44,221 bases of DNA from Psammoneis japonica. Taxonomy: Eukaryota. The stretch lies in assembly GCA_008632985.1 (NCBI GenBank), contig QPGO01000044.1:496001-540221 (forward strand). The letters are read 5' to 3'. The notes under the pieces were generated by a model. It made no database searches. It was not told the origin of the DNA and was given only the letters and a program-made list of their open reading frames with translations. Each line of letters begins with the position of its first letter. Position 1 is the first letter of the stretch. Below are positions 7,892-39,521 of the stretch, piece after piece. Position numbers and translations under genes: made by a program.

Positions 7892-9240
7892 CAGTCCTAT
7901 CAGTTTGTGTATGGTAGTGAGGATCGGGGCGAAAACGCAACAGCGACTCCAGATGCTCTACCAGGGGAAGCTGTTGCGGGGGACGACTGAAAAAACCGTC
8001 TTTCTCTGCCGCAAAGCTGTGGAGCGCTTGATTCCTTATGTCGTTCTTTTCTTGAAGCAGGGAGAACAGCAGGCTTATAGCCTCCCCACAGGTTTGCCAT
8101 CGTACCCGATTCGTGCAAACGCATAGGCCCATTAACCAGGACGAGCATTGGCAACGGCTAGAAACTGTTGGGCGTGAGCTACCCCTCCTCTTTCATTTCT
8201 ATCGATTGCCTCTATGATTGGAATATCACAGTATTTGTTTGCGAAGTTCAAATCTGCCCCTGCTCAATCAGCACGCGTGAGAAGTTCACGGAAGAGAAGC
8301 GGTACAAGGAACGTTCTGAAACGCTACGAGAAGACTACGTTCCCGTCAAGACTTTAGCACTAAGATCCAAACTCTTCGCTTGAGAATATTTCGATAAACT
8401 GGGCAAGGATGCTGCAATGTGATAGATCTCGAAACTAGATAAAGCTAAAAGAGAGTTATACACTACACATCCGACAAACCAAATTTGTCCTTCAAAAGCG
8501 AAACCAGCCAAAGCCTAACGGGTTCTTCATTCTGTGTCGGTTGTTTAAGTCAGTAGTCGTCGCCGTGGATGCACCGGTACTATCAACCGCAACGACAGCA
8601 GCATCGCTTGTTGTCCCATCGCCTCCAGTGTTTCCACCAGCATTGTTTCCATCGTCCCGGTCCGTAGTCAACTCCGACCGAATCGAGGTGCTATCGCCGG
8701 AATCACCAATGTTGACGGGGATCAATAAAGAAGTACGACGCTCGTTGATGAGAGACCTCATGTCTTACCATTGGGCTTGAGGAAGTTGAATGAGGCACTC
8801 CAAAACAACATCATCGGGGGGGTGGGGGGGGTCCACGGATGAGGCACGGTAAAAGGAGCAAAAGTTTTGATTTCAGAGGTCAGCTCCACATGAATCTGGC
8901 AGCCACATGCTCCCTTTCCTGCAAAAAGCACTGCCCCAAACTTGTTTGTGTGAGCTGCTGTGAGTGAGTGAGCGGCAGTCATGTCTGTCTCAAATCAAGC
9001 AGCCATTTTGATGACAGCTTCCCAGCCCATGCTTGTTTGCCAAATCGTCCAAGCCAAACATTGGTGGGGGCGGGTGCCTGGCTGGTGCTTGGGCTGTGTC
9101 TTTTTGTCACATTGGGTCAACAGGAACCCAGTGACATGGGACAGGCTCATGGTTGTCCCAAATGATGGCTGAGATGCGTGATTCTGTCTGACCGTTCATT
9201 CTTTCGTGGATTGTCCCACTCATCCATCATGCCACCAATG

Positions 9241-9506
9241 CCCAAACTTCCATTGCATCATGCCACACTTTCAATGCAGTCATTTTGGCATTGTGCTCTG
9301 CACTCATTCTGCATGAAATTTGTGCAGAAAAAAGATCCAATCTTGTGGGTGGTGTGAGCCGATCAACTCTCCAACAACAAAAGAAAAATTCTTCTCACCA
9401 CCATGTGCTCTCTTGGGCCATTTGTCTTGCCGGTTGTTGAGCAGCTGCATCACATGGCAACAGCAGCAAAATTGCATTGGCATCTCTGTCCACAGCTGCT
9501 AGATTG
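9241..9506 (+). pseudogene. Degenerate copy of acnB promoter, 5'UTR and start of the transit peptide
   Basis: Aligns by eye to about 25325-25575 (aaacttcc..gcactttcaa..gaaaaaagatccaatcttg..ccatg..cagcaaaa) with TA/CG replaced by TG/CA. Confidence 0.8.
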
Positions 9507-10264
9507 TTGTCTCTCAACATGGCTCTTCTGCTGGCAGCACTTGCTGTGACTGCTTGGACAAGCCAGAGATGGATGCAAGAATTTTGGTTTGGAGCAATTG
9601 AGAACAATGATGTTCAGGGGAGGCCCTGGGGCAGCCAGACAGATGGCCCAGAAACTGTGGGTTGACATGGCAAAGGGGGAAAACAGGCAAATTGAGCATT
9701 GTTGAAGCAGCAAGAGGAGGCGCGGCAGACTCGGATTGGGCCGGGAGTTGGAGGCACAACTTCTGGTTGAGGGAAGAGCACCAATGACTTGGGCAAGAAC
9801 TGGACTTTGGTGGAGGTAGAAAGATTGTGGTGGGAGGCATCACGGGAAGCTCCGTTGAAAAAGTTTGCAAGATCAAGGAGGACCAAAGCCTTGGAAAGGG
9901 CAGGTGCGCATCACAGGGACACAGGTCGCTGCCCCACAAGGGACAGACCATGAATGTGTGGGACAGACAGGCCACTCCGCAGGATTTCATGTGTGGCACG
10001 CGCACTTGTGTTGTGCAATTGTGCACCCACACTGCCGGCACCTCAGCCTCTGTTGGTTTTCAGTGATGGTTGAGCATTGAGCTCATCACATGTTGTGTGT
10101 GAGATGTGGCTCATGTGTGTGTGTTCTTTCCATTGCGGTGACACCCACCCACCACACGGCATCACTGTGCCATCATCGCATGAGCGCGATCTTCCCACAG
10201 CTTGCGCATCCTTGACAAGGCCCTCTCTCTGCTGGAGAGCACAAGCACTAAAAAGTCAGACAGT

Positions 10265-12717
10265 CATGGCAATGATCCCCTCTTCCAGAGCCATGGTCAC
10301 ACCAGTTTTCAGGACTGGATGGTGCCGTGAACGCTCGAGTTGCGATGATCGTTGCAGCTGCATGCGCGCCAATTACAAGCAGAATTGTCAAAGTTGCCAA
10401 AGATGGATCTGATCAGGACATTGCATCATGCACACATCTGCAGGCTGGGTGCACACTCGTTGTCTTGGCGAGGAAAATCAAGGACTTCCTGCCATTCAAA
10501 GGGACTCAACCCATGGATCCGAAGTGACATGATCAAGGATGGTCGTCCTTCTGCCAAACATTGGCTCAAATTTGATGGGGAAGACAAGGAAGACAGTGTT
10601 GACCCTCCCCACAAGTGGTCATGTGCGCATGGTGAAATCAGGAAGCAGAAGGCGCACGCTGTGGTCCTGGGCCCACTGGCGAGCAAAAAGCCATTCTGGA
10701 CTGTGAACCAACACCCGGAGAAAGTCCAATTTGTGTGAATGCGCCAGCTGGCTGCAGAAAAACAACAACCATTGCCATGCTGTGCAACCATTTGCATGAC
10801 ATGCATGGTGACTTTCAAATCCTTTACCTGGTCTTCGGGAAGAAGACTCAACCAACGCCATGGAATCCAATGAATTCCCGAAGGCACAAATGGAAATTCG
10901 TGCCACGCACGCTTTTGCTCTTTGACACCATTTCGGAGTGCAAAATGTGCACTCCTTCAAACCACCAGAAGATCATGCTCTGGACGACATCATTGAGAGT
11001 GTCGAATTGGAAGAAGACATGAAGGCTGTGTTTCCAGAAGTCTCTTGTAAAAGTCGGAAGTTTACAAAGATGGTGAACTCCGCCGCGCCCTGCATTCCTA
11101 AAACGGTTCACAACTTTCACGCGTCAGCAGACATGGAGCTTTCAGATGAACATGTCCATTGGAGGGCCTGGAAGCAGACTTATCTTCAAAAAAGCAGGAA
11201 GTGGAGGGAAATGATTCCTGTCCACAAGTGCGTTAATTGGGCCACCAAACATTTCGGCTTGATTCGGGAACGATGCAACTGCGTCAGAGAGGGCAGGGGG
11301 AGCAGGAACATGCGTGTTTCGCATGATGGACATCTCAAGGTGGCACAGATGGAGTGTGACATGACTCATGAATTTGATGTTGTTGTTGTGTGATGAAGCA
11401 CAAGATGTGACACCTTGTCAGGCAGACATGTTTTGGGGTGATGACGCTTGGCAAGAATGAATCATGTGCTTGTTTGGTGATCCTCGCCAACAATTGCATC
11501 GATTTCAAGGAGCGAGCACATCATTCAACAGAGTGCACAAATCTGCACCTAATCAATTCAAGCTAATGGGTTCCTTTCAATTTGGGGAGGCAATTGCTGA
11601 GGCTGCATCATTGGTGCTTCAAGCGGTTGATGGCAAGAAATTGGTGGGGCGGGCGACAGACCCTGGTGAGCTGCATCAAGCGGCTGATTTTGACAACAAT
11701 GGAGTTGTCCTTTGTTGCACAAATGAAGGACTTTGTCAGCACCTGTTCTTCAATCAAGCGACAAAGTGGCGCCATTTAGATGGGAGGAAAAAGGTGTTCC
11801 CTGAGCCTCCAAAGTGGGTGAATTTGCTGGAAGATTTTCTCAAGATTGTCAACGCAGATGATGACGACAACAGCAGTGAATGCCAGAGATTCAAGGCACT
11901 TTCTGTTGATCAAGAAGAATTGGACCAAGGACCAGAAGCAAGCTTTCAACACTGAGGCAAAACATTTGGTGTGCTGGGCTCTGTCAAAGAGCACATTGAA
12001 GATGAAGGGGACACTGAACTGTTCAAGTGCCTCAACTTGCTTCTCTTTCTTCAGGCACAGAATCTATCTCTCAATGAGTTCATCAAAAGAATGGAGTGCT
12101 CTTTTGTCCCAATGGCAAATGGAATGGATCCAAATGTGCACAAGGGCATGGCACTGGGGGCTGTTCACAAAGCCAAGGGACTCGAATTTGATCGGGTCCA
12201 TTCATCCGACGACTTTCTGTTAGACTCAATTCTTGTGGCCACCCTCAGTGCACCACACCTCATTGACAAGGCAAACATCCTTTACGTTGCTGTCACAAGG
12301 GTGAAATCACACCTCTTCCTCAGCAACGAGGCCCGGAATTGTCTGGAGAAGCTGTCGGCAAAGCTCGGTCAACAAAAAATGAGGACAGTGCCCCACCGTT
12401 CAATGAAGGAACAACGTGAAGAATGGAAAGAAAAATGGTCAGTCTTCAAGAGTGCAAAGCCACGCATCTGTCAACTCTCAGACATTCTGTTGCCATCTGA
12501 GAATGAGGATGACCCACTTGCTTTGGACAGCACGATGATGGAGAAGGAGCAGCAACTGCACCTTCGAAATTTGCTGCTCCTGTGCCATCCGGACAAGTTC
12601 CTCCCTGTTTTTGATGACGTTGCAGATGGCTGTCGACAGAGCATCACAGAAAAGCTTCACAGCATTTGTCAGTCTGCCAGAAGTGCTCTGCGCTGTTTGC
12701 AAAGCTCAGATCTGTGA
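10265..12717 (+). pseudogene. Degraded FBH1/UvrD-like SF1 DNA helicase with a C-terminal HPDK (J-domain-like) motif
   Basis: Motifs in order across broken frames: NAPAGCRKTTT (Walker A), ILYLVFGK, HDGHLK, DEAQD, GDPRQQLHRFQGA, SFQFG, VLCCTN, VHKAKGLEFDRV, NILYVAVTR, LCHPDKF; stops and frameshifts; start approximate. Confidence 0.85.
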
Positions 12718-12895
12718 GAGAGAAGCAGCCACTGATTTCCCTCCAGACATCCAGACACAAACAAAAGGCCACGCTTCGTGTTTGCAAAATGTCCAGCCCA
12801 TTTTTGGTTTTGCAAAAGCCTGTGATTGGCTCCGTTTGGCCGATTAAAAAGTCTCTCTTTGCTGTCAAATCAATCTTCATTCGTAACTGCCTGCA

Positions 12896-14261
12896 CTGGA
12901 TTTTTAAAGCTGGTGTGACAGAACTCGCTGTCATGAGGACTGATGATGAAAGTGAGTGTGGCAGTGGCACCATGATGAGTGTGATGCAAATGTCAGCTCT
13001 GGAGTCTTGGCAATCCACCTTGCCAGATTTTTCAGGCCAGTGCACCAAAACTCTGGTCACAAAAAGACCGCCGGCAAAAGTGAATGGCAGTGGCATCATG
13101 TTGGATGCAATGCGAATGTTGACCAGTGCTGATCAATCTTCGCTGGGTGTTGCTCTGCTGGCTAGATTTTTAACTTTTTCCACACCCACGCGGTTTCGCG
13201 CGATTGCCCTGTTTAAACAAAATTTTCAATTGTGAAGAATGCCAACATAAATGCAGCAACAAAACTTTTCCACTCAAATGAGTGCAAATGAATGTGTGCT
13301 GTTTCGACCGTGACAGTTTTGTCTGATGGCATTACAAGCCCCAGGACAGACTTTGGACCCATGTGTTGGACAATTGCGAAGAGATCCGTGCCACACACAC
13401 AACCGGACGACACATCTGAATGGACTGGGGCGGTGGGGTGCAAAAAAGTGACAGACAGACGCACGCATGCTGGGGACGCATGCAGACACCATGGAAGAGT
13501 GACTTTTGGCGACAATTTCCAAAATCTTTGGTCCTGTTCAAAGTTTTGCATTGTGCATGCTGCAGGTTTTGTCAGCAGGGCTGTGCACCCTGCTTCACAA
13601 GTGTCTGAACTGGGTGTCTGTGGGTCGAAATGTGTTGAGCCGAGTCATTCTTCTGAAGCTGCTGACAAAGAGGAAAGGCAACATTTTCCATTCAAATGAC
13701 ACAACACCAGGAAATGTGTGATTAATGTGTGAACAACAATGAAATGGCAATTGCACTTGAGCCAATTAGAGAAAATGCTGGGACAAAAAATTTTGTCCCG
13801 CGGGTGCGGAAAAAGTTAAAGCCAGAGTGTGATGCGACAAAGCTCTTGTCACAAAAAAAAAGCCAAGAAAAGTGAACACTGCAACGGCATTGTCATGGGT
13901 GCGATGTAAATGTTGACTGGTCTTGACACAATCACAGTTCACTCTTCTGTCAACGTCGGTGGGCAGAAGTGCCCAGTGTGGGTGCTGATCAATTTTTGTT
14001 CAGCATCACCCTGCTGGCTGGATTTTTAAAACTGGAGCACAGCATGGCTTGCTGTCACAAAAAGACCGCCAACAAAAGTCAGTTGAGAGTGTGTTGCAGC
14101 AATGGCATCATGATGTGGATGCAACTGACAAAAAATTGACTGGTCTTAAGACAGCCACAGCTCACTCTGCTCTCTCTGGACTGCCAGCATGACAAAACTC
14201 GCTGTCACAAAGTGCGCCGCAGATGAAAGTGGGTGGCAATGGCATCATGACAGAGATGCAA
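12896..14261 (+). repeat. Dispersed degenerate repeat of about 70 bp, about 5 copies
   Basis: Core (g)ctgtcacaaaaagaccgcc..aaaagtg..gcartggcatcatg..gatgcaa at about 12921, 13051, 13841, 14051 and 14194; ctggatttttaaa at about 12896 and 14018. Confidence 0.65.
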
Positions 14262-14269
14262 CATGAGCC

Positions 14270-15830
14270 CCAGAAAGTCTCATTCAAAGAAACAGAGAGT
14301 GTGCTGGAGACTCAAGTCTTGACCCCACTTGCCAAGAAGGAGAAACAACCAAAGAGCATGAGCAAGAAGGTGTGCTGCAATTGCACCTTGATGTCCACTT
14401 GCCAAACTCTTGCTTGCTTGTGCTGCAATCACAACCCCGCCATGCAGATCTTGTGCTTGTTTTGCCAAGTGCAAGGACAAGGAAGGGCTCCCAACTTTTG
14501 TGGTGCTTCAAGCAATGGGAGTTTGGGTGAGAAATCATGGAAACTTCAGACCTCCCTGGAAACCAGCCCATTTCAGCCAAAAATGTGTCAACTTTGCACC
14601 GACGCCCCTGACGGTGCTGATGAAGAAGAAAAAGTCGGCCAACCCCAAAACCAACAATGAAAACAACACCACACCCAATGACCAAGCAACAAGTGTTGAC
14701 CAGAGGAGAGATGGCAAGGTGCTCAACACTGCCTCAAGGGAAAGAGAGCAGCCAGAGGATGAGGAGGGAGAAATTTTGTGTCATCACAGGAGAATGACTT
14801 TGTGTCATCACAGGAGAATGACCCCAACATTGCACCCAATGGCTTCAAGTTGGGTGCCAAACAAGTCATTTGTGAGGAGCACGCCAAAGCACAACCTGAG
14901 CAATGACACTCCTCATCTCGGTGGCGGAATGTCAGATGACCATTCTTGGCAAGAGCACCAGTGCAGGCCAGTGCCCCAGCACCCATTGCAACAACATGGC
15001 ACACCAAACAGATCTGCTAGAAAACAATTCATTGCAATGTTGGCAGAGTCACTTTGCAGGGTCAAGATGTGAAAATGAAGCTCAGAGAGGCTTTCAGTGC
15101 ACCAGACAGTATTTTGCAATGGGCTCACAAAGCAGGGGGAGCACAAGACATCAGGGCCCATGCTTGTTGGGCTCCTCACAGATGATGGGACACTGACAAA
15201 CACAAAATTCCAGTCAAATCTACAGAATGGCTGCTTGCAAGCAATCTCAAATCCACTGAGAGGAGCAAAATGCCAAGTTGTGTGCCAAGACATTCAACAG
15301 AGTGGCTCCTCAAGGTGGCCCAAGGGTGCAGTCAGGTGTGTTGCTGAGCTCAAAAAAGGTGGAATGCTTCCACCCACCAGATGATTTTGACACAAAGACA
15401 AAGAGGGCACTGCATTTGAAGTCTTGGAACCCAAACATCCCAGCACAAGAGCTCCAGAAAAATGCTTGCTTAACAAGTGCAGTGAGTCACCCAAGCTTCA
15501 AGATGTCATTGTCACAGACAGCACTGTGGAGATTCTTGTTGCAAGAGGACAACTGTCCAGCAGCTCAGAACTTGGCAGATTTGACATCAACGCAGTGTCA
15601 AAGTGGCTTCTCTGTCACAGAGAGCCAGCAGGGCCAGTGGGTTGCTTGGGGAGGCACCACGCATTGTGGCAGCAAGCCATGGTCAAAGCCATTCTCCTGG
15701 TTTCTGAAGCAGAAGCCAAAGAAGTGCACAACACAGACCAGTCATGTGCTTGATTGGCAGCAGGCATCAAAAGCAGTGCTCACAATGTGACTTGCTCTGG
15801 GAACAACACTTGGCTGACTCTGTCATGCCA
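14270..15830 (+). mobile_element. Relic of a CRE-clade non-LTR retrotransposon (5' Cys-rich region plus start of the RT region, internally deleted)
   Basis: Cys cluster CCNCT..C..LAC.C; NDTPHLGGGMSDD.SWQ; SSER; GGMLPP; EVLEPKHP; KWLL; GPVG...KAIL..EAKE..DQSCA.LAAGIKSSAH. These match remembered CRE-type consensus blocks (HLxGGIxDDxxWQ, WNSER, SKHP, QLCAGLxAGIEGAxH). Confidence 0.7.
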
Positions 15831-16435
15831 GGGCCAGGGGCAGTGGCAGCCAGCAGCATTGATGGTTCTTCTTTCTTGTTTTGCCTTGATCAATTCATGG
15901 AGCTTTGCAAAATGCCAATCAACACATCAGCAGAGATGCACTGCAGTCCAAAGAGGCTCCAAAAAAGTCCTTAAATGCCTGTTGGTCTTTTCATCTTTTG
16001 GCTTGTCCTTGGATGAAAGGATGCAAGAGGTCAAATTCCAACAACAGGTGTTTCCCCAGCATTTTTCTCTCCAGACTTGACACTGTGGTGCACAGGGCAC
16101 AATGTGTCTGTCTTGTGGCATGCACACCCAATCAGCTGAGACAACACGTGGCATCACTTTCAAATCAATTGGCCATTGTCATGAGAGCAATTCTCAGTCC
16201 CTTTTCCATTGTGCACAGTGAAAAAAAGTGGCACAACCAGTGAAAGATTTCTGTGTGTTTGCACCCACAAATTGCACCAGCCTGACTCCTCTGGTGTGCT
16301 TGAACTGTCATTTTGTCAGAGACCATGCATCATCATGTGCTTGCACCAGGAATGCATGGAACAGGCTGTGGAGTTCCTGTCTGAAAGGGTGAGCTGCCTG
16401 TGCTGTGCGATGTGCCCATCATTTGCGCTGTTGTG

Positions 16436-17825
16436 TGGATTTACAAGCAGCTTCAAGTCACCTGTCTTTTGCATCACATGCAACAGGAGGGACAGGTTTC
16501 TGAGGCTTTCGCCCAAGACAGAACCTCTGGGGTCTCACAACACATGGATTCAACCAAGTGCAGCACTGGCTGGCTTTCTGAGCTTGGTCTCCTGTTCAAT
16601 TGCTTTGTGACAATCAGTCTCTGTTGGGCCAAAGTCTGCCAAGACCAGATCATCATCCTTGCCATCATCTCCCAAGAAGATGGTGGCCATTTTTGCTGAG
16701 GCAGCATTTTGTTGCATTCTTGCAGCACCTTCTGCCAGCAGTGTCTTCAAGTCTGCAATGCATTTTTTTCCATGTTTGTGCAGCTGCTGCACAAAAACAC
16801 TGTTGCAGCACAAAAAATGCAACAACTGCCACTTGGTGACACAATCAGTGCCCAACACAACACCCTCTTGACCCATCCCTGAGGAAGAAGTGAGAGCAAC
16901 CAACTGCAAAAGAAGCTGCCTGCTGTTTCAAGTCTGTGCCCTTCCTGTTGTCAGTTCTGCCAATGTGACAGTGTGGGCAAGCACTGGGTCTTTGGCATCA
17001 GTCACTGCATGACCCATTGACTCCTCAGGACCAACAGCCAGATCAGAAAATCCGTTTGACTTGCGCTTCCCAGCTTTCAGCTCAAAAAGTGAATGATGAT
17101 CCCACCAGATGTCACACATGCCAAAGGAAGCACCCCATTGATCTGCAGCAGCAGCAGCAGTTCTCCTTCAAGAATGCATTTGCAGCCTGGCTGTTTGTCT
17201 GCCCCCCCCCCCCCCCCCCCAGGGTCCATTTGTCCTTCTCCAGCATCTGTGCTTGCCTTGCAGATGAAACAACTTCCAGCCAGAATGTCATCTTCAAGCA
17301 CAGACAAGGTGAAATTGATGGTGGCTTCTGGTGTGGGAAGATCAATGGTGGTGGCCATGTCACTCAACTTTTTTCAATTTGTTCGAGCACATTTGACTCA
17401 CATTGCAGCTGCTGTTGCAGCAAAACTTGAGAGTGCAATGGTGAGCAACAGAGAGCAAACGGGAGACAGTTTCGTCAAGAAGTTGCATTTTGTGGCTGAC
17501 AAACAAAAGTGTGTTTTGCGCGACAGTTGCTGTGAGTTGTTGCAGAGCACGATTGCATTCACAAGCAAGAAGAAAGAAAAAGTGTGATTCTGCCTGCTGC
17601 TGGATGCTTTGCATGCAAGCGCCAAGCCAGGATTTCTGAGCAATGCCCTTGACTCTCAACATTTCTTGTAGAGGAGCTCCTCCATGCCCCAAGAATGTCA
17701 CTCAAGTTCACACCATGCAGCACAATGCCATTTTCTGCCACCGCTGATTCCCGCGCACTGTGCTCTCCCTTGTTTTCCTCGTCCGTCATCATGGCGCCAT
17801 TGCTCTGCGCTGATTGTGGTGGAGC
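16436..17825 (-). pseudogene. Full-length degenerate paralogue of the Crinkler-like gene at 19710-20988
   Basis: Colinear with 19670-21010 including the intron; ETPEVLSWAKASETCPSCCM versus intact ETPEVPSWAKASETCPSYYM; frameshifts. Confidence 0.92.
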
Positions 17826-17899
17826 TCAACACAGCGATGACTCAACCCAATTTCTGCGCCATCGTTTGCATGATTTTCCCATTCATCTTCCCCACCACA

Positions 17900-18563
17900 C
17901 AGCTGCCAAACTTCCATCGCATCATGCTGCACTTTCAATGGCAGCCATTTCTCACTCAGCACTGTCCTCCACACTCATTCTGCACAGAATTGTGCAGAAA
18001 AAAGATGCAGCAGAAAAATCTTGCAGTGCAAGCCAGTCAATTTTCCCACAAAGAAGTTCTCAACCATGATGCTCTCTTGAGCCATTCGTCTTGCGGGTTG
18101 TCTGGCAGTTGCGCTGCATGGCAGTGTCAGCAAAACTGCTTCTGTGGCATCTCTGCCAACTCTTGCTGGATCTTCATCGCCTTTGACTGCTGGTTTGATC
18201 AACACGCTGCAACAACGTCTTGCAGCAGTGACAGCAATTTGCTTGTTCATCTCCACTCTGCATCTCTGACTTGCAATTCTTCTTTGCCGTTTTTGAATTC
18301 TTGTGAAGCAGCGGCATCTCTGTTCATTGTTGCTGGATTGTTGTCATTGCCTCAACTGGTTTGATCAACAACAACACTGCTGCACCACTGCAAACACACT
18401 CTGCTCTTCTAACAGCAATTTGCTTGCTCATTTCTGCTTGTCTGCGCTTGCTCGATCAAGTTTTTCTTTTTCTTCTGCTTTTTTGGATTTCTGCCAAGCC
18501 GCGCAGATGATGAACATTCTCAACTTGCTGGCAACATTGGCGTGGCACCCAAACCACTTGACA
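17900..18563 (+). pseudogene. Two tandem degenerate copies of the acnB 5' region (17900-18310 promoter plus transit peptide; 18310-18563 transit peptide to GVAPKPLD)
   Basis: Align to about 25325-25720 and 25545-25782; e.g. gaacattctcaacttgctggcaacattggcgtggcacccaaaccacttgac versus gaacgttctcagttggcgggtggtgtcggtgtcgcaccgaaaccactcgat. Confidence 0.85.
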
Positions 18564-19709
18564 TTGGCACTGCCATCCCTCCTTGTACTTCCACTGCCCC
18601 CCCCCCCCCCCCCCCCCATCATCGCTGCATTGCCAGCCGCTGTTGATGCAACCATCCCAAAGCTCCTTCTTGCCAGTCTGCCTGCTCCTTTTTCTCCAGC
18701 TCTGGCTGAGGCACATGACACAAGAATGAGGTCAAAGTTTCTTGGCCCCACCACATCTTCTTCTTGTGGCTCCCTTGCCACCCAGTCTCTCAACGATGAT
18801 GGGGTCTTCCTTCTTCCTTTTGCCATCGATCACCTCAGTGGTCTCAGCTTCTTCTTTCACTGCTTCCTTTTTTGTTCCTCCTCCTCTTTGCTCTGCTCCT
18901 AACCCAAGCCTTCTTGGTCTGATTCTTCTGCCCTCCAACACCCTGACGCCCCCCACGCCGCCTTCTGCCATGCTCTCACTTTGCCAGCTTCCCTTTTTCT
19001 GCTGACTTTGCCTGGCACCAACTTGCCACCGACCGCTTTGGCAACTCTTGCCGCTCTTCTACTCCCTCTCAATGGGCCACCCAACACCTTGGATACAATG
19101 TCACCCATCATCTTTCCGCCCACACCCTTCGATTTCTCTCTGTTCATACAGCACCCTCCGCACCGCTTCCTCTCCGCTCCCTTCTTTGAAACGCCCTGCG
19201 CGCGTTCTTGCGCGCCCCTTCTTTGCTCCCGCGCTATCCTGCAGCCAGTTCCGTGCCTCCTTTATGCTGATTTGGCTCTTTAATCAACCCTTTACTTAAA
19301 AAATTGAAAGAGACATGATCGTGTCTGTGCATACGATCCCGGTGCGCCAGCATCAATGACAGGCATGAGCACTCGACTGTGACCGAAGATAATCTTCCAC
19401 AGGTACCGGATTCGATACCGTTGTGCAACAAAAATTGGGAGCTTTCGTGAAAGGATCGGGTTTGGCTGTTGCCCAGTCAATTGGATTTGGTCAACAAGGA
19501 ATAGGGTGTATCGATGTTGATATAATGACATATTTGTTGTACATGATAGGACCTTAGTACCAAATAGCAGAAAAAGGTGTTATTCCAACAAGAAACAAGA
19601 AACACAAAATCACGTGCTTTTCTTTGTTTGTAAAATACTTACAATGTCCATATTCTTAAGAATTCTAATATGGATTTAAAAGCAGTTTCAATGTCACCTG
19701 TCCTTTGCA

Positions 19710-20988
19710 TCACATGTAATAGGAGGGACAGGTTTCTGAGGCTTTCGCCCAAGACGGAACCTCTGGGGTCTCACCATACAAAGCTCCAAGCACACCGGCT
19801 AACTTTCTAAGCTTGGCCTCCCGTTCAATTGCTTTGTCCCGATCAGTCTCTTCTGCGCCAAAGTCTGCCATAACTATATCATCATCCTTGCCATCATCGT
19901 CCAAGATGGCGGCCATTTTTGCCGGAGCAGTATTTTGTTGCATTCTCGCAGTACCTTCCACAAGCAGCATCTTCAAGTCGGCGATACACTTTTTCCCATG
20001 TTTGTACGGCTGCACGAAAACACTGTTGTAGCCCGAAAAATGCAACAACCGCCACTTGGTGACGCAATCAGTACCCAACACAACAACACCTTGACCCATC
20101 CCTGAGACAAAAGAGAGAGCAACCAACTGCAGAAGAAGCTGCCCCTGTTTCAAGTCTGCCCTTCCTGTTTTAAGTTCCACTAATGCGACAGTGTAGGCAA
20201 GCACTAGATCTTTGGCATCAGTCACTGCATAACCCATTGACTCCTCAGGACCAACAGCCAGATCAGAAAAGCCGTTTGACTTGCGCTTCCCAGCTTTCAG
20301 TTCGGGAAGTGAACGATTCCGGACGTCATACATGCCGAAGGAAGCACCATTGATCTCCAGTGGCAGCAATTCTCCTTCAAGAATCCGTTTGCAGCCTGGC
20401 TGTCCATCTGCCTCGTGCTCTTTCTCCCCCCAGGGGTATTCCTCCATCTGTCCTTCTCCAGTGTCTTTGTTTACCTCGCGGACAACAACTTCTATCTTCA
20501 TATCTTCAAGCATAGACGAGGTGAAATTCATGGTGGCTTCTGACATGGGAAGATCAACGGTGGCCATGTCGTTCAACTTCTTTTCAATTCGTTCGAGAGT
20601 ATTTAATTCACCTTGTAGCTGCTGGTGCAGCGAAATTTGAGAATGCGATAGCGAGCGGCACAGAGAGAGCAGACGAGAGATAGTTTTATTAAAAGTTGTC
20701 GTGGTTGACGAACAAAAGCATATATCATGACAGTTGCGAGTTGCTGTAGCACGATCGCATTAGCAAGAAAAAGAAAAAAATACGACTCTCACCTACCTGC
20801 TGCTGCTGGATGTTTTGTATGTAAGCGCGAAGCCGGGATTTCCGAGCGATGCCCTCGACACTCAACATTTCGTAGAGCTCCTCCATGCCCCGAATGTCAT
20901 TCGGGTTCACGCCACGCAACACAACGCCATTTTCTGCCGCCGCTGATTCCCATGCACGCTCCTCCTTTTCCTCTTCCGTTGGTGCCAT
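19710..20988 (-). CDS. Crinkler (CRN)-like protein with a predicted PD-(D/E)XK nuclease-type C-terminal domain, 2 exons
   Basis: Exon 1 MAPTEEE...IQQQQ (20988-20797); GT-AG intron about 20796-20622 in phase 0; exon 2 QLQGELN...GFSDLAV...ALVELKT...QGQLLLQLVALS...VVLGTD...KWRLLHF. Intact frame, normal TA/CG. Family called by motif resemblance. Confidence 0.7.
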
Positions 20989-21399
20989 TGCTCTGCTGAT
21001 TGCTTGGAGAGAGTATGAGAGCCATCCGCACGTTTATCCTAAAATTACCGTGACATTTGAATAAGGTTATTTATTAAATAAGTTTATTTATTAGAGTCTA
21101 TTTTTAAAATACAAAACTTGGACGCTTCGCTGGACGGCTGTCTCGTTGTTTGTCTACTGTAGGTACAGCATTATACCGGTAGGACCTACTAACTCTAGCT
21201 ACTAGTAGAGGGCCCTACTCTAGCTAGAGAGTAGAGTGGCAGCAGCTAGAGTAGAGACTGCACGACATGCAGTTGAGACAAAAATTTGAATTTTCGATGA
21301 TGAACATTGTCACATTGTTTGTCATTCTCAGAGAGAATGATGTCAACAAAGTTCTTGGGCTTTGCTGTTTGTCTGCACCAAAAAGACTTTGAACAATGA

Positions 21400-22060: not shown

Positions 22061-22349
22061 GAGGCATAAGAAGAAAGCACAGGGGAGGTCTGTTTCATTT
22101 GGTTCCAAGGAAAGAGATGTGCGCTGTCAACTTTCCTGCCCTGTCCCTGTTGTGGGTTTCTTCATTGACAAGAGAACTCCAAGAATCAGTCAGAGAATGC
22201 AGATGACCCAGCTCCCAGTTTTGTGTGACAACACAACAACTGTGCACAAGAAGCTCCAGGGCAGGGGACAATTGAGAGCCTGGTTGTCAACAACTTCAGC
22301 TGCAGAACAACTGGGTTTGTGTGGTTCTGTCTAGAGTGACAACAAGAAA

Positions 22350-24627: not shown

Positions 24628-24740
24628 CAAAACTTCCGTCGCATCATGCCGCACTTTCGATGGCAGTCCTTTTGGCATTGTCCGTTGGCACTCCTCATTC
24701 TGCGTGTGAAATCAGTGCAGAAAAAAGATCCAATCTTACA
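24628..24740 (+). pseudogene. Degenerate copy of the acnB promoter fragment
   Basis: caaaacttccgtcgcatcatgccgcactttc...cagaaaaaagatccaatctt matches about 25328-25427. Confidence 0.8.
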
Positions 24741-24747
24741 CAAAACA

Positions 24748-28346: not shown

Positions 28347-28393
28347 GAGAGAGAGAGTAGAAAAAAAGATTTGAGAGAGAGAGAGAGAGGAGA
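28347..28393 (+). repeat. Interrupted (GA)n microsatellite downstream of acnB
   Basis: gagagagagag...gagagagagagagagagg. Confidence 0.8.
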
Positions 28394-32153: not shown

Positions 32154-33112
32154 TCTTGTTTCCGCGCGTCTACCCAAACCACCCTAATGTTTACACAAGA
32201 AAGGATTGAGACAAAAAAAGTCAGCAACTTAGGACCTTCGTCTGTAGAGCAGCACACACCTCTCACGTTCAAAGTGCTCTTCTGACAACCAATGGAGCCC
32301 GACGCTTTTTCACACTTTTATTTTTGGGCTCTACAGCAGGAAAACCCTCGATTCAAACAACATCTTCTTACCTGCACCCTGGTGGATTCTCAGGATATCG
32401 ATGCTCGCCAAAGTGGAATGACAAAGTTTCTTTCTTGTCGCACCGCAAGATAAGGGATGGTGGTTGGATCTTGTGAGCAACAAAATTGGCCTGGTCGCGG
32501 AATCAAATTTTTATTATGTCGGAACACGATCCAGATTTTTTAATGTAGCCTTCAATGCTGAATACGTTCATGCCCTCAAACGGTTATAAAAATACTCATT
32601 TCCATAGTAATTGTATAAAGCCTCTGTAAAACAGGCAATACTTTTTTAGCTCGTGTGTTGTTCAAGTGGCTCGTGATTTTGGAGAACGAGCACCGCACCT
32701 CGCCAAGGTTGGCGTGTCCGCTTCTCTTTATAACATGCTCACGTCTCTACAAAAGGATTCCTTCATGATGGCATTGTGAATGCTGTAACCCAAACTGTTC
32801 TCCTCATGAGTGAAGAAGAAAGAGCTTTTTTTTGTGGCCTGAGCAAGGAGCAGGAGCCACGCCCTCCTTTTCTTTGCCTGCTTTGACATTTTTTCTGCCT
32901 TTGTCTCTCTGCCACACTGCCTGTGTGTGACTCTGCATGGCCTCTGGTGCTGCTGATGTCACCTTTCTCTGATGGTGTGATGATGGCTCTAGCCTGCCCA
33001 CTCCGACTGCTGGCTTCTTCTTCTCACATGTTGACATGCCCCCGTTTCATCATCACAAGAAATCTTGCTCATTGGAGAGCAACCAGCACCACGCTCTTTG
33101 GCCAACTTGATT

Positions 33113-33672
33113 GTCATTCTTTTTGGCAATTTGCTCCATTGTCTGCAAAGTTCCATGCAAGATTCAGCACAAATTCTGTGCTCTGAAAGTCATCTCGGAT
33201 GGCTGACTTGCCAACAAACTGTCGACTGCTCTCAGCTCATGCCTCACCGGCATCAATGAACCCCCTTCTGTCTGGTGTCAGTTTCAGCTCCCTGCTTCAT
33301 GTGGTGAACAGTCTTCCATCATTGGCACTCCCAGAAGCTTGAACTTGAGACCAACTCAGCATGATTTGGCCTTTTCTTCCATTTGCTTGCATTTCTGCAC
33401 AAGTTTCAGCACAAGCTCTGCATGTCTTGAAGGTCATTTTGGACGATCAACTTGCCAAACTGTCAACTTCTCTCTGCCCACACCTCTCAGGCATTGACAA
33501 CCCCCTTCCACCCATTGTCAGTTCAAGTTCCCCACTTTGTGTTGTGAACAATCTTGGCATGATCCTGCCTTTCTTTGGTTTGCCTGCATTTCCACACAAG
33601 TTTTGCACGTCTTTGAGGACATTTTGGATGATCGACTTGTCAAACTGTCAATTGCTCTCTGCCCAAGCACTT
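33113..33672 (+). repeat. Three degenerate copies of a unit of about 200 bp
   Basis: Recurrent gtcatYtYgga.gat..acttg.caaactgtc.a.t.ctctc at about 33190, 33433 and 33618; gtgaaca.tctt at about 33304 and 33544. Confidence 0.75.
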
Positions 33673-34853
33673 TGATGTTGATGCTTCATTTTGCCATGCA
33701 GCTTTTGCTGATGCCAGCTCTTTCCTGTGGGGCCCATGCTTGTGGCATCAATCTCAGCCAGTTGTCACATGCTCCTGCCGTGCTGCAATGTGCTGGGGGT
33801 GTGGGTCAGCTTGTTTTCTGGAGTCACAGGGCAGAAGCACAACAGCACTTTAAACATGGAATTTTGGTTTTGGATTGCTGCCCACTTTGACAGCTTTGTA
33901 GAGCAAGGCCATGAAATGGTGCTGTCAATCAAAAGTGGAAATGTCACTTTGATGATCTTCAAATTCTCTGCGCACATGCGGTGATGGTGCCAGATGCCTC
34001 CTGAAGAGCTGCGCCTCTGTTGCAAGCTTGTGCCAGAAGCTGCCAGAGTCTGCAACTTTGGCAAAAAAACAGCACTGGGCAAGGATCAGCAACAACAAAT
34101 CAAAAGAGCAATGGAGCATGAGCACGGTGTGGGCCTGATCTCAAAAACAATGCAGCAGGCTGTTCATGAACTTTTGATGCTTTTTCATCATGCACAGCAA
34201 GTGCATGACTGCTGCTGGTGAATGAAATGACCAACTCTCTAGATCTGGCTGGAGCTGCAATTTCTGAAAAAGGTTTCCATGGCATCCATGCCCCCCCACA
34301 CCCTGCTTTTGAACCAGGTGATTTGGCAGTCAAGACTTCCCTCGCCAATTCTTTGCACCCCAGAAAAAGCAGATTGTTGAGCACACTGTTTTCTGCAGCA
34401 TGGTGTCTCATGTCTCCCTTGGCCACACTTGCTTGGCTTTTTTGAGAGGAGACATTGCTTCCTGTGTCATCCACTCCATGAACACTGCATTGTTCTGTGC
34501 TGCAGGTCTCAAGATGAGGATTAAAATCTCCAACCAGGCTGCCAAAACTGCTCATTGGAGCTTGCAAGTTTTGTTGCACAGGCCTGAGAAATCTTGCCAG
34601 TGGAGTGGATGCCACTGCCTGCTGGTGTTGACAAAAGAGCAAATTGTGGTTGTCAAGAGCAGTCAGCATTTCTGTGCCACATCCATCACAATGCCATTGC
34701 TTTTCACTTTTCAGTGGTCTTGTGACACAGCAAGTTTTGTTGCACTGGCTTGAAACATCTGGCCAGTGGAGCAGTGCCAAATGAAGATTGAACAGTGCTT
34801 GTTGGGCACCACCACCGGGTGTTGACAGAAAAGCAAACTTTGATGATTGGCAT

Positions 34854-35015
34854 CAAGACAGAGTCCACATTTGCACTGCATGCATCACAGTGCCTTGCTG
34901 TTCAATTTTTGATTGTCTTGGTGACAGCTGATTGTCAAGACTGAGAGTCAACATTTGCACTGCATTCATGGCAATGCTGTTTCTGTTCACTTTTGAGAGC
35001 AGTCTTGGTGACAGC
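34854..35015 (+). repeat. Tandem duplication of about 85 bp
   Basis: caagac.gagtc.acatttgcactgcat...gtcttggtgacagc occurs twice. Confidence 0.75.
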
Positions 35016-36039
35016 AAGTTTTGCATGCCCAGCAACAGCAAATTGAGAGCTGTCAACACATGGATGCCAACACCCACTGGCACTGACAAAAGCGTGATCT
35101 GCATTTGTCAAGACAGGCAAACATTTGCATTGCCTCCATCATGTCATCAGCTCCGTTTGTCTTTCAGCAATCTTTGTGACTGTAAGTTTTTCACACTGGC
35201 TTGTCTGCTCCAGGCACAGTCAGGTTCTTGTTGGCTGCGCCACTGCTGCAGTCCTTCTTGGAGGTGTTGTTCAATTTGAATGGCATGCTTGCATTTGTTC
35301 ACATGTCAAAGCTGTCAGCTGAGGTGCTGGTCAAGGCAACAGGTGTTGCAACTCATGTTGTTGGCTGCTGTTGTTTTAAGTTGCATGGGTTCCCCTGCAA
35401 ACCAGAGATGGTTTGCTGCTGCAACAAGCATGGTGAGTGAGCTTGCACATTTTGCAAAGTTGGGCCTCTTCTTCTGTCAGTGATCATCAGCGCATTTGCT
35501 GCCTGAGGATTTTGCTGAGGGGCCCACTTGTGGAATGCTGCAGGCCCAACATCACATGGAGCCCCACCTGGGGCTGGAGCACATTGGCTGCCACAAATGT
35601 TTTGGACAGGGTGCCCACAATTGCATGTGCTCATTGACAAAATGGCGCGGGCCTGGTCAACCCAGAGTTGGCTGGCGTTTGCACACACATCATCACGACA
35701 CTTGAAAAGTGCAGCCTCCAGTGTCTGCTCAATCTTGCTGCCTTGACCCCTGGAGTGTGCAGCATTGCTGCTGCAGTTGATCTCCCTGACACTCTGGTGA
35801 ATGATTTGCCAGCAGATGACAAGTGGGGCAAAAATGCACAGGCTCCAGAGCTGTGCACAGCACAATCTGATGCCAACAAACATGCTTCAGAGGGCAAGAT
35901 GAGCATTTGAAAGCTCATGACATGCACTGCTGTGGCACAGCAAGCTGGCTCATGTGAATTTTGTTGTGCTCAGAAACAAGATGATGACAGGGCTCCCATG
36001 CAGGTGCCAGGAGCAACAACCTCATTCTACACTCACATT

Positions 36040-36760
36040 GCATGATCAGCCAGCAAGCTCTGCAGGGAGTGCACCAGCCACAAGAGAATGATGGGAACAA
36101 ACAACAGTGGGCAATTGTCAAGTGCCTTGCCCAAACTCCAAGGGAGTCATTTTGCAAATCAACTCTCCATGCTTGTGGGGACAATGCGCTGAACACAAAA
36201 AAGTTGAGACCCCATTTTTCCATCAAACATTGTTGACATGTCCACAAAACTGAGAAGCAAACTTGTTGAGCCTGGCAACAAAAGCAACACAAACAGCTGC
36301 ACCCTTCATCATGACCTGCTGGCCAACCAGCAGAGCAGTGGCTGCACTCCAAGGGAGTCATTTTGTCAACCTGCCCTCAACACTTGTGGGGACAATGCAT
36401 TGGACACAAAAAGGCTTGGGCCCCATTTTTCCTGCAAATGTCAACACCCACAGAACTGAGAAGCAAAATTGAGCCAGGCAAAACAAAAAAAAAACAACAA
36501 AGACAGCTGCTGATCACTTTGTCATGACCCTCTGGCCCACAGCACAGCCAGTGGCTGCACTCCAAGGGGGGGACTGTTTTTCCAATCAACTCTCCACACT
36601 TGTGGGGACAATGCACTGTGCACACAAAAAGTTGAGATCCCATTTTTCTTGCAAACATCAAAAAACCACAAAGCAAGCTTGAGCCAAGCAAACAAAAAAC
36701 AACAAAGTCAGCTGTGCCTTTTGTTGTAACCCACTGACCAGCAGCATGATGGTTGCTTTC
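36040..36760 (+). repeat. Tandem repeat with a period of about 211 bp, three copies plus partials
   Basis: ccaaggg...cttgtggggacaatgc...acacaaaaa...cccattttt at about 36138, 36349 and 36562. Confidence 0.85.
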
Positions 36761-39521
36761 TCCAGCAGCCAGAGCAAACATTGAAAATGGGGGCTTGTGG
36801 TCAAAAGAAGAAACAAGCAAGAGTTGGCATCAGGAAGCACAAGGCTGGGCCTTGGCACAATCCCAAGACAAGGTGGTGGGAGATTTTTTGTGAGAGTGTT
36901 GGCTGGCTTGAAAGATCTGCCAGATCTTTCTCCCACACAATTTTGTGTGGAATGAGTGCAACTCCTCAAAAATGGCTGTTGAAAGTGTGGTGTGATGTCA
37001 GTGAGTCATGTGACAAATGATGGGGTCACAGCAAGAGCACAAAAGATCATGCACAGCAATGTTGCTCAACCCTGCAGTGCCACATGCAGTGACAAAAACT
37101 CTTCTGCCAAAGTGCATTTCCAGCTGACTGACTTTGTGCTCATGCCAAGTTCCTGACAACTTTTGGGTTGCAAGCAGGGGTTTGTGTGAGCCACAGAGCT
37201 GTTGCCAAAATTTGTCCCTTGCAGCCACTTTCTCCCTTGCAAAAAAGGCAACTTTTGCAAAAAATCAGCTGCATGCCCTCCAATGTGCCCTGTGCCATGA
37301 ATGGTGTGTGCCCGCCACATTCTTGCAAGACATCATTTTAAAGAGTGGGAGACTGATGATGCTCACATTTTGGAGTTGCACACTTTCTGGCTGCATGTTG
37401 GGGCTCACAAAGTCTGGCCAGCACAAACCCAAAAAGAGAGCTCTCAAGAGTCAAGCATGGGTGCAGATGCTCAAGAATCATGAGACTCAGAGAGCACAAA
37501 AAGGGGAGTCAACCCTTTGTCAATGTCAAGACATGCAACAGGAGCATCAGTGGGAAACCCACTTGTGGCAGCACTCCATTTTGCAGTTTGTTGTTGATCC
37601 CATGACAGCCAAGCTTCTTTGCCTCCTTGGTGCTGCCTTCACTCTCAAGTCACCCAAAAAGCCACCTTTTTTTGCTGAAAGAGTTGGGGCATTTGCCATC
37701 CAAATGTCCATGACAAAGCAGTGCAAAAAGACTTGTTGTTGTCATGTGCCTCTCACACAGCACACCACTCCACTTGCCCACAGTGTGGCTGGACTCAAAT
37801 GCTTGTGCTTGAACAGCACAGAAGAATTGAAAGTGACACATTGACGATGCACAATGTTGACTGCATGCAGTCCAGCATGTCATCAGGAAATGCCACAGAC
37901 ACAATCACACTTTGTGAGGACTTGTGAAAACACTCACAAAAGTCTGACAACCTGACCATTTCACAGATTCTGGCATGCCAAAGGCTCGCTCAGATGTGCG
38001 GCATGTTCCAGCTCCAGTTGAAGCACTTTTGGAAGTCAAAAATGTCTTGCTTAAATTTCTTCTTTGAGTTGGGAAATTTCAAGACAAATGGAAAAATGTT
38101 CACATGAGACACTGCGCTGTCCATGTTGGTGCATCTTTTTGTGGTCGAAACTGGTCAAAAGTGATGGACAAGTTGAGACAGGATTGTTTTGCCAAAAGCC
38201 CCAATTGCATGATTTTGTTTTGCCTGGAGTTGGAGCAGGCTGCTCTCAAAAGAAAGAGAGCAGAGCAGGAGGAGGAGCAATGGGCTCAACAGATGATTGA
38301 AGAGCTGCACCTGGGTTGTGCACCATTTTCATCACATGCCATTGTGGCTTGCAAAAGCAGCATCATGGAGACAGAGATTGTGCAACATGATGATTGCACT
38401 CACAACCCTTGCAAAGTGGCAAACATGCCATTGGAACCAAGGCCTTGTTGATTCACACAAGCCACCATCCTTGTCTCACATCAGCTTTCACCTTGATGGT
38501 CATCAAGCACAAAGCCCACTTTGTTGATGAAGAGAGCAGCGATCATGATGCCAACAAATTCAACAACAACAATGGACTGAGTGTCCAAACTCCACAGTGT
38601 GGCCAAAAATGTCACAGCTCTCAAGAGTGACAGCAATGCCCCCCCCTCCTGTTTGTGACATCTTGCAACTCTTTTGAGCTCAACAAGACCAAAAGCCAGC
38701 CACGATGCAAAGAACGCGGCGGCGGCTGCACTCAAAAGCTCTGCTCTCATTTCTAAAAATGTTGCAGCTTGGGCACCCAAGACATTGCTGCTTTTTCACA
38801 CAGAGTGCCACAATGTTGGTCAAAGTTGAAGCTCAGCTTCAGAGGAGCTCCTCCCATCTTTGCTTGCACACAGGGAGTGGCACGTTGTTTTCTTGCTTTC
38901 TTCTTGTTGATGAGGAGGGCAACACTCGCTCAGAAACAAAGCAATGAGAAATGTGATGCAATGCTGCAGCAAGGCTCATCAACCCATAACCAGGCTCCTG
39001 CAATGTCTTCATTGATGCAGCTCCTGCTCCCCAAGCCACATCTTCTGTGCCCTTCTTGCGGACCCACCTCTTTTGTGCACGAGTGATGAGAGAAAGCATG
39101 ATGGACCACTTTTGACCCTGCTGGGTGGCTGGTTGCTGTGTCAGCATTCCATCACCGTGAGATGTTACGATCAGAGCTCACATGAAAGAGCAAGCAATGC
39201 ATCATTGGGCCCTGCATTCCACCGCATGGCTTCAATGATGCGGTTTCACGCTCAGTGCTCAGTGCAATGATGTGCGCACCGCGCATGTCATGTGAGCGAG
39301 AATGGCCGTTGCGCATGTTTCAGTCACGCTTCGTGATCATTCGCGCATTGTCTTTCCCACGACTCACGACTTCTTCCTTCTCAACGCTTATTCTCGTGAC
39401 ATGTCATGGCAGCCGACGGTGAGGTTTCCCAGCTTCCCACTTTTCATTCAATCTCACAACATCATAGTCAGTAGATCTTCAAGGAACACAGCAGCCAGCA
39501 ATCGGACGCGAAGGGAAAAAA

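Follow-up and report, generated by a model that had tools for sequence, protein, structure and literature searches.

In our literature search, a hypermutation process directed at the dinucleotide TpA was described only in a preprint on the chlorarachniophyte Bigelowiella natans, and no report of TpA loss in diatoms was found. In mutation-accumulation lines of B. natans, two integrated viral regions are reported to have a mutation rate about 1000-fold higher than that of the remaining genome; of the 231 mutations in these regions, 230 were A>G or T>C and all lay at TpA, and they occurred in only some of the lines (bioRxiv 10.64898/2026.01.13.699255). An ADAT2 homologue is proposed there as the enzyme, with reference to DNA editing by ADAT2 of amphioxus and trypanosomes, and the hypermutated regions are delimited by Rho_TpA ≤ 0.43 together with Rho_CpA+TpG ≥ 1.52 in at least 3 consecutive windows; 324 coding sequences with a mean TpA frequency of 0.0018 are reported as well (bioRxiv 10.64898/2026.01.13.699255). 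Here, we describe a stretch of 44,221 nt from the diatom Psammoneis japonica (assembly GCA_008632985.1, contig QPGO01000044.1, forward-strand positions 496,001 to 540,221; hereafter the window, whose own numbering is used throughout) in which three blocks are nearly free of TpA and poor in CpG. The cause is very probably a real mutational process that is directed at TpA and confined to silent domains, and the diatom blocks appear to belong to the same kind as the TpA hypermutation of B. natans.

The two cases agree in the exclusive change of TpA to TpG or CpA, in a regional depletion visible in runs of 1-kb windows, in silent DNA as the target and in an adenine deaminase as the leading idea. 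All core windows of the diatom blocks lie within the B. natans cut-offs, with observed/expected (O/E) ratios of ≤ 0.13 for TA and ≥ 1.55 for TG+CA. The host is a stramenopile (diatom) here and a rhizarian there, and the loss is near saturation here (O/E 0.02–0.06 per block), whereas a Rho_TpA of 0.45 is given for the active region of B. natans derived from a nucleocytoplasmic large DNA virus. Integrated viral DNA is the reported target in B. natans, decayed host-gene copies and repeats are the targets in P. japonica. Phased decay of CpG and a 4-base flank rule were found here; the main text of the preprint contains neither the words ‘CpG’ and ‘diatom’ nor the words ‘context’, ‘flanking’ and ‘trinucleotide’. 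In contrast, the mutation rate was measured in B. natans, and the diatom process is known from sequence alone. The first-pass annotation of the window, made from its letters without database searches, knew of no description of such a process. This is outdated, since TpA-only A:T>G:C hypermutation has been measured in B. natans and an ADAT-type deaminase has been proposed there too (bioRxiv 10.64898/2026.01.13.699255).

Composition and borders of the depleted blocks

The O/E ratios of TpA, CpG and TG+CA were computed in 1-kb sliding windows across the whole window, and the block borders were set on individual TA positions. Block 1 (8767..19059; 10,293 nt) contains 41 TA (O/E 0.062) and 196 CG (O/E 0.316), block 2 (21253..25158; 3,906 nt) contains 6 TA (O/E 0.023) and 46 CG (O/E 0.203), and block 3 (32787..39388; 6,602 nt) contains 14 TA (O/E 0.032) and 60 CG (O/E 0.157), which gives 61 TA over 20.8 kb. 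The four normal stretches forming the rest of the window have TA O/E of 0.54–0.67 and CG O/E of 0.81–1.03. The 1-kb windows within 9001-18500, 21501-24500 and 33001-38500 hold 0–9 TpA (O/E 0.00–0.13), compared with 19–51 (O/E 0.41–0.75) in those lying wholly outside the blocks. The corresponding CpG O/E values are 0.02–0.56 inside and 0.60–1.26 outside, and those of TG+CA 1.55–2.04 inside and 1.01–1.33 outside. The G+C content calculated from summed base fractions is 48.4% both inside and outside the blocks, because the gain from TA>TG/CA offsets the loss from CG>TG/CA. The first-pass annotation had described three nearly TpA-free and CpG-poor blocks with normal flanks, and the O/E counts (TpA 0.02–0.06 and CpG 0.16–0.32 in the blocks) bear this out; its borders (8.8–19.2, 21.3–25.15 and 32.8–39.3 kb) were correct to within about 150 nt.

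Since TA has gone, almost only TGA stops remain in the blocks (501 TGA versus 43 TAA and 19 TAG on both strands of block 1). Ninety open reading frames (ORFs) of at least 90 aa are present in the blocks in all six frames, and their translations are almost free of Tyr and rich in Cys, His and Gln. Gene finders will over-call long false ORFs nearly without Tyr in such TA-less DNA.

The block borders are sharp and lie within a few hundred bases of intact ORFs or of genes covered by an RNA-like sequencing run (X2). The left border of block 2 is abrupt, with TA dense up to 21252 and the next TA only at 22067. At the right-hand edges of all three blocks, the CpG density returns 100–500 nt ahead of the TpA density; the last 522 nt of block 2 (24637-25158) have a TA O/E of 0.057 while their CG O/E is 0.53. 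This is consistent with a faster loss of TpA than of CpG along a gradient of exposure. Two separate domains were also considered for the early return of CpG and the idea was dropped, as a single domain in which TpA is lost faster explains the borders equally well.

The same composition would arise if a long-read basecaller had misread modified bases in silent DNA as TG or CA where the DNA has TA or CG. The window does carry long-read-type errors: within 26056-27585, 8 places were listed at which it is one base short in comparison with the contigs of X2 and/or of a public run of the same sample (X1). These missing bases are errors of the assembly consensus and not biology, and they split an AcnB-type aconitase gene into the ORFs 26269-26931, 27106-27594 and 27591-28334. 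The data behind the consensus were thus noisier than those of X1, and the two nevertheless show the same sequence without TA. Run X1 contains 82% of the sampled 31-mers of 15001-25000, and its k-mer contigs have a word depth of about 54–68 over the blocks and 49–62 over the flanks. One X1 contig of 4,530 nt, placed on 8001-11794 (3,794 nt), differs from the window at 18 letters, and another on 13790-16510 (2,721 nt) differs at 9. The flank rate would predict several hundred TAs in these two stretches, so the reads do not restore them.

Among the 181 differences between reads and window, the 40 listed ones were classed. Half of them (20) are CG<->TG/CA; 11 of these have TG/CA in the window and CG in the reads, which would fit the basecalling explanation, and 9 run in the opposite direction. 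The others are 4 letters in two CA>TG doubles, 2 TA>TG, 1 CA>TA and 13 of other kinds, and a TA is restored by the reads in just 1 of the 40. The two doubles, at 10160-10161 and 10265-10266, where the window has CA and the X1 contig TG, might also be counted in favour of misreading; it is possible that the consensus is wrong here, or that two alleles are present in which an ancestral TA or CG had different outcomes. A CA/TG swap of this kind occurs between the paralogues described below in 6 and 3 cases. In addition, the mutated copies carry indels and 9.4% of substitutions outside pyrimidine–purine (YpR) steps, which marks them as truly diverged sequences. The basecalling check proposed by the first-pass annotation has therefore come out in favour of the sequence, as the X1 contigs (platform unrecorded) keep it TA-less, and we regard an artefact as extremely unlikely.

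Direction and context of the changes

A conserved diatom gene, here called gene X, is present as an active copy between blocks 1 and 2 and as a hypermutated duplicate in block 1. The active copy with its flanks forms a spared island (19060..21252; minus strand; TA O/E 0.67, CG O/E 0.81) with an ORF at 19710-20576, an intron at 20619-20796 that a contig of X2 skips, and an upstream exon reaching to 21003. The ORF has 51 homologues, the best being a transcript of the Marine Microbial Eukaryote Transcriptome Sequencing Project (MMETSP) with 73% identity; two others are named ‘expressed unknown protein [Seminavis robusta]’ (62% identity). The duplicate (16436..17887; minus strand) is collinear with the active copy through the intron-matching and upstream regions. 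The outgroup protein P0001 shares 72% identity with the normal copy and 44–53% with the mutated one, so the mutated copy is the derived one. This confirms the direction proposed in the first-pass annotation, i.e. TpA to TpG/CpA and CpG to TpG/CpA, which is likewise borne out by the Tyr to His/Cys replacements in the helicase described below. The manual counts given there were exact (14 TA and 17 CG in 19711-20100; 0 TA and 1 CG in 16474-16877), and over the whole copies 42 TA and 61 CG with an open conserved ORF in 19671-21002 stand against 2 TA and 17 CG in 16436-17816.

In the alignment of 19671-21002 with 16436-17816 (1309 columns, 84% identity), 37 of 38 TA sites are changed (18 to CA and 13 to TG), as are 48 of 57 CG sites (23 to CA and 21 to TG), whereas the other dinucleotides are kept at 60–92%. 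The changes of CG are those confined to CpG, 44 of the 48 having become CA or TG. When both strands are considered, A>G was found at 35/76 TpA, 21/203 ApA, 12/195 CpA and 13/177 GpA. A>G is thus commoner at TpA than at A in other contexts (35/76 versus 6–10%; Fisher p 2e-15), and the absence of such an excess, named beforehand in the first-pass annotation as grounds for refutation, is not seen. Similarly, C>T affects 42/113 CpG compared with 10/201, 11/133 and 11/169 in the other contexts (Fisher p 1e-15), the 10/201 being CpA. Divergence outside any YpR step amounts to 63/667 (9.4%), 54 of these changes being transitions, and indels are also present. As TA is saturated (1/38 survives), its comparison with the 9.4% gives only a lower bound on the mutation rate.

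A further, incomplete copy of gene X, the third, lies at the right edge of block 2 (24748..25151; minus strand) and shows the same conversion. In a three-way alignment 10 of 11 aligned TA sites are converted, and CG is kept at 9 sites at which it was lost in the block 1 copy. Of 41 informative sites, the two mutated copies agree in the choice between CA and TG at 30 and disagree at 11 (binomial p 0.002). Over five stretches, −ln(survival) of TA is 1.6–3.9 times that of CG (hand calculation from O/E). TpA is lost faster than CpG.

These data bear on the proposal, also made in the first-pass annotation, that T:G mismatches arising from deamination of 5-methylcytosine (5mC) recruit a Pol-eta-like polymerase which miscopies WA during error-prone patch repair, as in somatic hypermutation. 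The losses of TpA and CpG do share the same domains. Pol-eta errors, however, fall on WA, i.e. on both AA and TA, and A>G at ApA is not clearly raised above that at CpA+GpA (21/203 versus 25/372, p 0.15), whereas TpA reaches 35/76. The loss of TpA is everywhere more complete than that of CpG, as in the edge of block 2 (24637-25158) cited above. The surviving TAs show no clear spatial relation to the surviving CpGs, 19 of 20 distance bins having |z| < 2 and one −2.7, in a test that is unfair as TA is near saturation. Finally, the TpA process reported in B. natans has no CpG component. Patch repair is thus a very unlikely source of the TpA changes, and the WA>WG expectation failed.

A decayed UvrD/FBH1-like superfamily 1 (SF1) helicase in block 1 (10293..12714; plus strand), recognized by Pfam and by alignment with homologues, provides a second view of the direction. 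The homologues of this helicase, which is conserved in diatoms, have 830–960 aa and include proteins named from Thalassiosira exigua, Chaetoceros tenuissimus and a Bacillariaceae metagenome-assembled genome. The stretch has a TA O/E of 0.08 and a CG O/E of 0.50, with 2 in-frame TGA in the 440 codons examined. At columns in which at least 70% of 13 homologues agree, most conserved residues are kept (D 11/11, F 14/14, G 11/11, L 17/18, W 5/5, V 4/4 and Q 4/4). In contrast, Tyr is kept in just 1 of 8 columns, being replaced by His in five and by Cys in two, and Arg in 3 of 7, being replaced by Gln in three and by Cys in one. The former pattern results from TAY>CAY/TGY and the latter from CGN>CAN/TGN. 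The helicase gene was therefore inactivated almost purely by the two dinucleotide-specific processes.

Blocks of foreign DNA (a virus or a transposon) that avoided TA and CG before their insertion would also have sharp borders, and the 30/41 shared CA/TG choices of the mutated copies and a block repeat family with many related genomic copies could be understood in the same way. However, host genes are present in the blocks as decayed copies, and the normal relatives of these genes are ordinary in their TA, CG and Tyr contents; in-frame stops and the loss of conserved Tyr and Arg are also seen. In the 90 block ORFs (stop to stop, at least 90 aa), Pfam found the helicase as the sole real family and no viral, transposon, transposase or reverse-transcriptase domain; four further matches were sub-threshold and chance-like. 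Neither long terminal repeats (LTRs) nor terminal inverted repeats (TIRs) were found in the repeat search or in self-BLAST after collapsing all YpR steps. A native composition maintained by selection hardly comes into question as the explanation of the depletion as a whole. Most of blocks 2 and 3 is without recognizable content, and a foreign origin may apply to those parts.

The flanking bases influence which sites survive. The motif YTAR accounts for 35 of the 61 surviving TAs in the blocks, compared with 144 of 881 outside. The 4-base counts were compared between 18 kb of block cores and 21.8 kb outside. TTAA is essentially undepleted (18 in the cores versus 26 outside, Fisher p 1.4e-12), whereas CTAG (5 versus 34), GTAC (0 versus 60), ATAT (0 versus 59) and ATAC (1 versus 115) are depleted. 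Similarly, GCGC survives (40 in the cores versus 60 outside, p 1.8e-9), and in the alignments G precedes 9 of 69 changed Cs and 22 of 69 unchanged Cs, so that a G-preceded C is changed least. Protection of YTAR, especially of TTAA, and of GCGC, together with the period of about 180 nt in the surviving CpGs described below, are new details of the process. If adenine is the target, we infer from these flanks the order of preference TAY > TAG >> TAA.

The process is strand-symmetric and acts site by site. CA and TG outcomes along the paralogue alignment form 39 runs (38.2 expected), i.e. there are no strand-coordinated runs, and no 1-kb bin of the blocks has a regional CA-versus-TG skew of |z| ≥ 3. 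This distinguishes the locus from retroelements and viruses hypermutated by the cytosine deaminases APOBEC3/AID, which act on single-stranded replication intermediates and give strand-coordinated runs. The base is C there and A here, and the contexts differ as well. The two have in common a deaminase-type defence that leaves context-specific hypermutated relics, and the same comparison is drawn in the discussion of the B. natans preprint.

Both strands being equally affected, site by site, is also difficult to reconcile with RNA editing followed by reverse transcription, in which transcripts edited A-to-I by an enzyme of the ADAR or ADAT type would be copied back into DNA. ADAR prefers a 3′ G, and the 3′ rule found here (Y > G >> A) is unlike that preference. 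The mutated duplicate of gene X aligns with the active copy through the region matching the intron (20619-20796). Since both the intron and the upstream regions are kept, it arose at the DNA level and is no processed retrocopy. There is no reverse-transcriptase domain among the 90 block ORFs, and the loss of CpG would be left unexplained. In favour of editing, the discussion of the preprint states that ADAR usually favours U before the edited A. Taken together, an origin through edited transcripts is scarcely probable.

Targeting of silent domains and candidate agents

The island with the active copy of gene X is spared although it lies between two hypermutated blocks that contain its duplicates, which points to targeting by domain and not to repeat induction. 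In fungi, repeat-induced point mutation (RIP) consists of C>T mainly at CpA and creates TpA and AT-rich DNA (PMC2621366). Like RIP, the present process leaves dense and lasting transitions in specific contexts, by which silent or duplicated DNA is killed. Here, in contrast, TpA is destroyed, the G+C content is unchanged and the active copy is spared, whereas RIP mutates both copies of a repeat. Fungal RIP was rejected as the cause, with base, context and behaviour toward duplicates all wrong (TpA removed; C>T at CpA in 10/201), and the label ‘reverse RIP’ chosen in the first-pass annotation does not hold in the sense of a repeat-induced process. Its broader idea of a targeted mutator acting on silenced or repeat chromatin agrees, as regards silenced chromatin, with the sharp borders next to active genes. 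A DNMT4 related to RID is widespread in diatoms, its function being not known (PMC9998398).

The CpGs that survive in the blocks are periodic, their summed segment power peaking at T = 180 (9.28). This power was reached in none of 500 simulations with CpGs redistributed in 750-nt bins and in none of 500 with the survivors redrawn among all CG+TG+CA sites, and the period stands without the helicase stretch (0/500). No 180-nt peak was present for CpGs outside the blocks or for TG+CA inside them, and the surviving TAs, near saturation as they are, do not clearly follow the phase. Within 10267-12516, CpG–CpG distances peak near 10–30, 170–200, 360–400 and 530–580 nt, and 60-nt bins without CpG tend toward more TG+CA.

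In Phaeodactylum tricornutum, small RNAs of 25–30 nt occur with a period of 180–200 nt over highly methylated regions; a nucleosome-scale cause was proposed by the authors, and regularly spaced methylation was undetected in that study (PMC4247016). The CpG period of about 180 nt in P. japonica matches this spacing. It looks like a fossil of 5mC phased by nucleosomes in silenced chromatin, legible in the DNA sequence only, which would tie it to the so far unexplained 180-nt periodicity of diatom small RNAs. The CG>TG/CA changes are like those expected for the methylated silent DNA of diatoms, and the passages considered on such DNA (PMC9998398, PMC4247016) speak of no mutational footprint with a period. 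Indirectly, the period lends support to the view of the blocks as present or former methylated silent domains, and to ordinary 5mC decay as the source of the CpG changes. CpG decay in diatoms as a known system covers only these changes and not those at TpA. The blocks have no X2 cover except for a depth of 3.3 in one bin, which is not evidence of silence.

Taken as a whole, the locus seems best explained, with fair confidence, by TpA hypermutation and CpG decay operating in silent domains, with a deaminase as the favoured candidate agent of the former. One process turns 5′-TA-3′ into TG or CA (A:T to G:C) and has come near to completion. The other, which is 2–4 times slower in terms of −ln(survival) and phased at about 180 nt, turns CpG into TpG or CpA, presumably by deamination of 5mC in methylated silent chromatin. 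The enzyme of the TpA process would deaminate adenine in DNA to hypoxanthine, which pairs with C so that A becomes G; it would need a 5′ T and prefer a 3′ pyrimidine (TAY > TAG >> TAA), and an ADAT2/TadA-like protein would fit. It may be recruited to silenced chromatin or be allowed to act only there, perhaps targeted by small RNAs, and would be excluded from transcribed genes and their promoters. Targeting by chromatin state or small RNAs is suggested by where the borders lie, by the sparing of the active copy and by the phase of 180 nt. We infer the identity of the enzyme, its targeting, the presence of 5mC and any ongoing activity from such features.

A DNA adenine deaminase of the ADAT/TadA type, which the first-pass annotation had also named among its candidates, may well be the agent, although this assignment is tentative. 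It is favoured by the strict 5′ T, by the lean toward a 3′ pyrimidine and, as a precedent cited in the preprint, by the action of ADAT2 on DNA. In the natural tRNA substrate of ADAT2/3 and TadA, the universal U33 stands directly before the edited A34. The ABE8e A48E variant of the TadA base editors prefers the context YAC (PMC13109818), which resembles the TAY preference found here, and both would convert A>G through inosine. Natural ADATs, in contrast, are not known to act on chromatin domains.

The main rival to an adenine deaminase is an enzyme with thymine as its target, i.e. a TET/JBP-type dioxygenase that would oxidize T at TpA within silent chromatin to 5-hydroxymethyl- or 5-formyluracil; mispairing of these with G would give T>C. 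As TA is self-complementary, T>C and A>G are indistinguishable from the sequence. The reaction would parallel the action of such an enzyme on 5mC at CpG, T and 5mC both being 5-methylpyrimidines and both sites self-complementary YpR steps. 5-Formyluracil is mutagenic, and 5-hydroxymethyluracil in dinoflagellates prefers TpA. In these algae, which are another lineage of the stramenopile–alveolate–rhizarian (SAR) group, it is reported to make up 12–68% of thymidine (PMC6313786). However, a search combining 5-hydroxymethyluracil with diatoms gave only dinoflagellate papers among the matches listed. Oxidation of 5mC does not by itself yield C>T, and the flank rules differ, with TTAA protected at TA and GCGC at CG. 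We consider oxidation of thymine improbable and prefer deamination of adenine.

Several points weigh against the interpretation of the locus as TpA hypermutation coupled to CpG decay. It rests on one window, i.e. a single locus. CpG is reported to play no part in the B. natans process; its coupling with the loss of TpA in P. japonica may thus be a coincidence of domains. The recognizable content of the blocks (the helicase, the gene X duplicate and the copy of an aconitase 5′ region) is host-like, whereas the targets in B. natans are viral. The shared CA/TG choices indicate either that part of the mutation predates the duplication or that the choice is context-biased; some of it is independent, and the two copies are not fully independent witnesses. 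The flank rule was derived by counting survivors and from small alignments, and it presupposes that the blocks originally had the context make-up of the flanks; the lean toward C after the A (21/45 changed versus 10/45 unchanged) is weak taken alone (hand chi-square p about 0.1). As for the reads, X1 comes from the same sample as the assembly and is independent of it in method at best, not in biology; its platform and library type are unrecorded, and the classes given above cover 40 of the 181 differences.

With the diatom blocks, TpA hypermutation is now found in a second and ecologically dominant algal lineage, which argues for a widespread system over a curiosity of one species. It is conceivable, though on present data rather doubtful, that diatoms and chlorarachniophytes, and perhaps SAR generally, share a chromatin- or small-RNA-guided TA adenine deaminase (TAY preferred, TTAA spared) which erases silenced DNA, host duplicates and viruses alike. 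If this were true, the enzyme would edit adenine in DNA naturally and in a sequence-specific manner, and would join RIP and APOBEC as a third kind of mutational genome defence in eukaryotes. No Tyr-poor relatives were present among 66 homologues, and no TpA depletion was found in 8 related environmental loci (L001-L008; about 23 kb, mostly genic), which is too little DNA to judge other diatoms. A process near completion that erases host-derived DNA, and not only viral inserts, would be a force in pseudogene formation and in the evolution of diatom genomes. Handles for finding the enzyme are provided by the flank rule, with TAY hit and TTAA spared, and by the exemption of transcribed genes, and a natural DNA adenine deaminase that reads its context would be of interest to builders of base editors.

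Other contents of the blocks and flanks

The blocks are probably silent DNA between active genes, made up of decayed duplicates of host genes, the decayed helicase gene and dispersed repeats. Besides the copies of gene X, they contain a mutated copy of the upstream/5′ region of the aconitase gene at 17752..18309 (plus strand), the normal original of which lies at 25163-25719, and a further mutated copy of the same original at 9200-9556. A dispersed repeat at 12870..14266 is also found, inverted, at 34589-35200. The summed depth of X1 contigs over 12870..14266 is 330–1068, compared with about 55–80 elsewhere, which indicates many related copies in the genome. The ORF 34103-34852 (minus strand) in block 3 had no homologue among 610 candidates, and the other long ORFs of the blocks resemble translations of non-coding DNA. 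The tRNA and Rfam scans of the window gave 0 hits.

In the flanks, Pfam recognized a Stc1-domain repeat protein, a nucleotide-diphospho-sugar transferase, the AcnB-type aconitase and a weak lipoxygenase-like match. The Stc1 domain (E 2.8e-17) belongs to a 652-aa ORF at 3221-5179 (minus strand), which is rich in Cys codons and contains 6–8 tandem repeats of 168–192 nt. Stc1 connects RNAi with H3K9 methylation in fission yeast; the position of this ORF next to silent blocks is probably a coincidence. A tandem array at 30647-31784, with a G+C content of about 60% and units of 96–114 nt, is enclosed by long ORFs of both strands (30144-32177). The array, probably a repetitive protein-coding gene, has a strong skew of TG over CA (140 versus 19 in 31001-32000).

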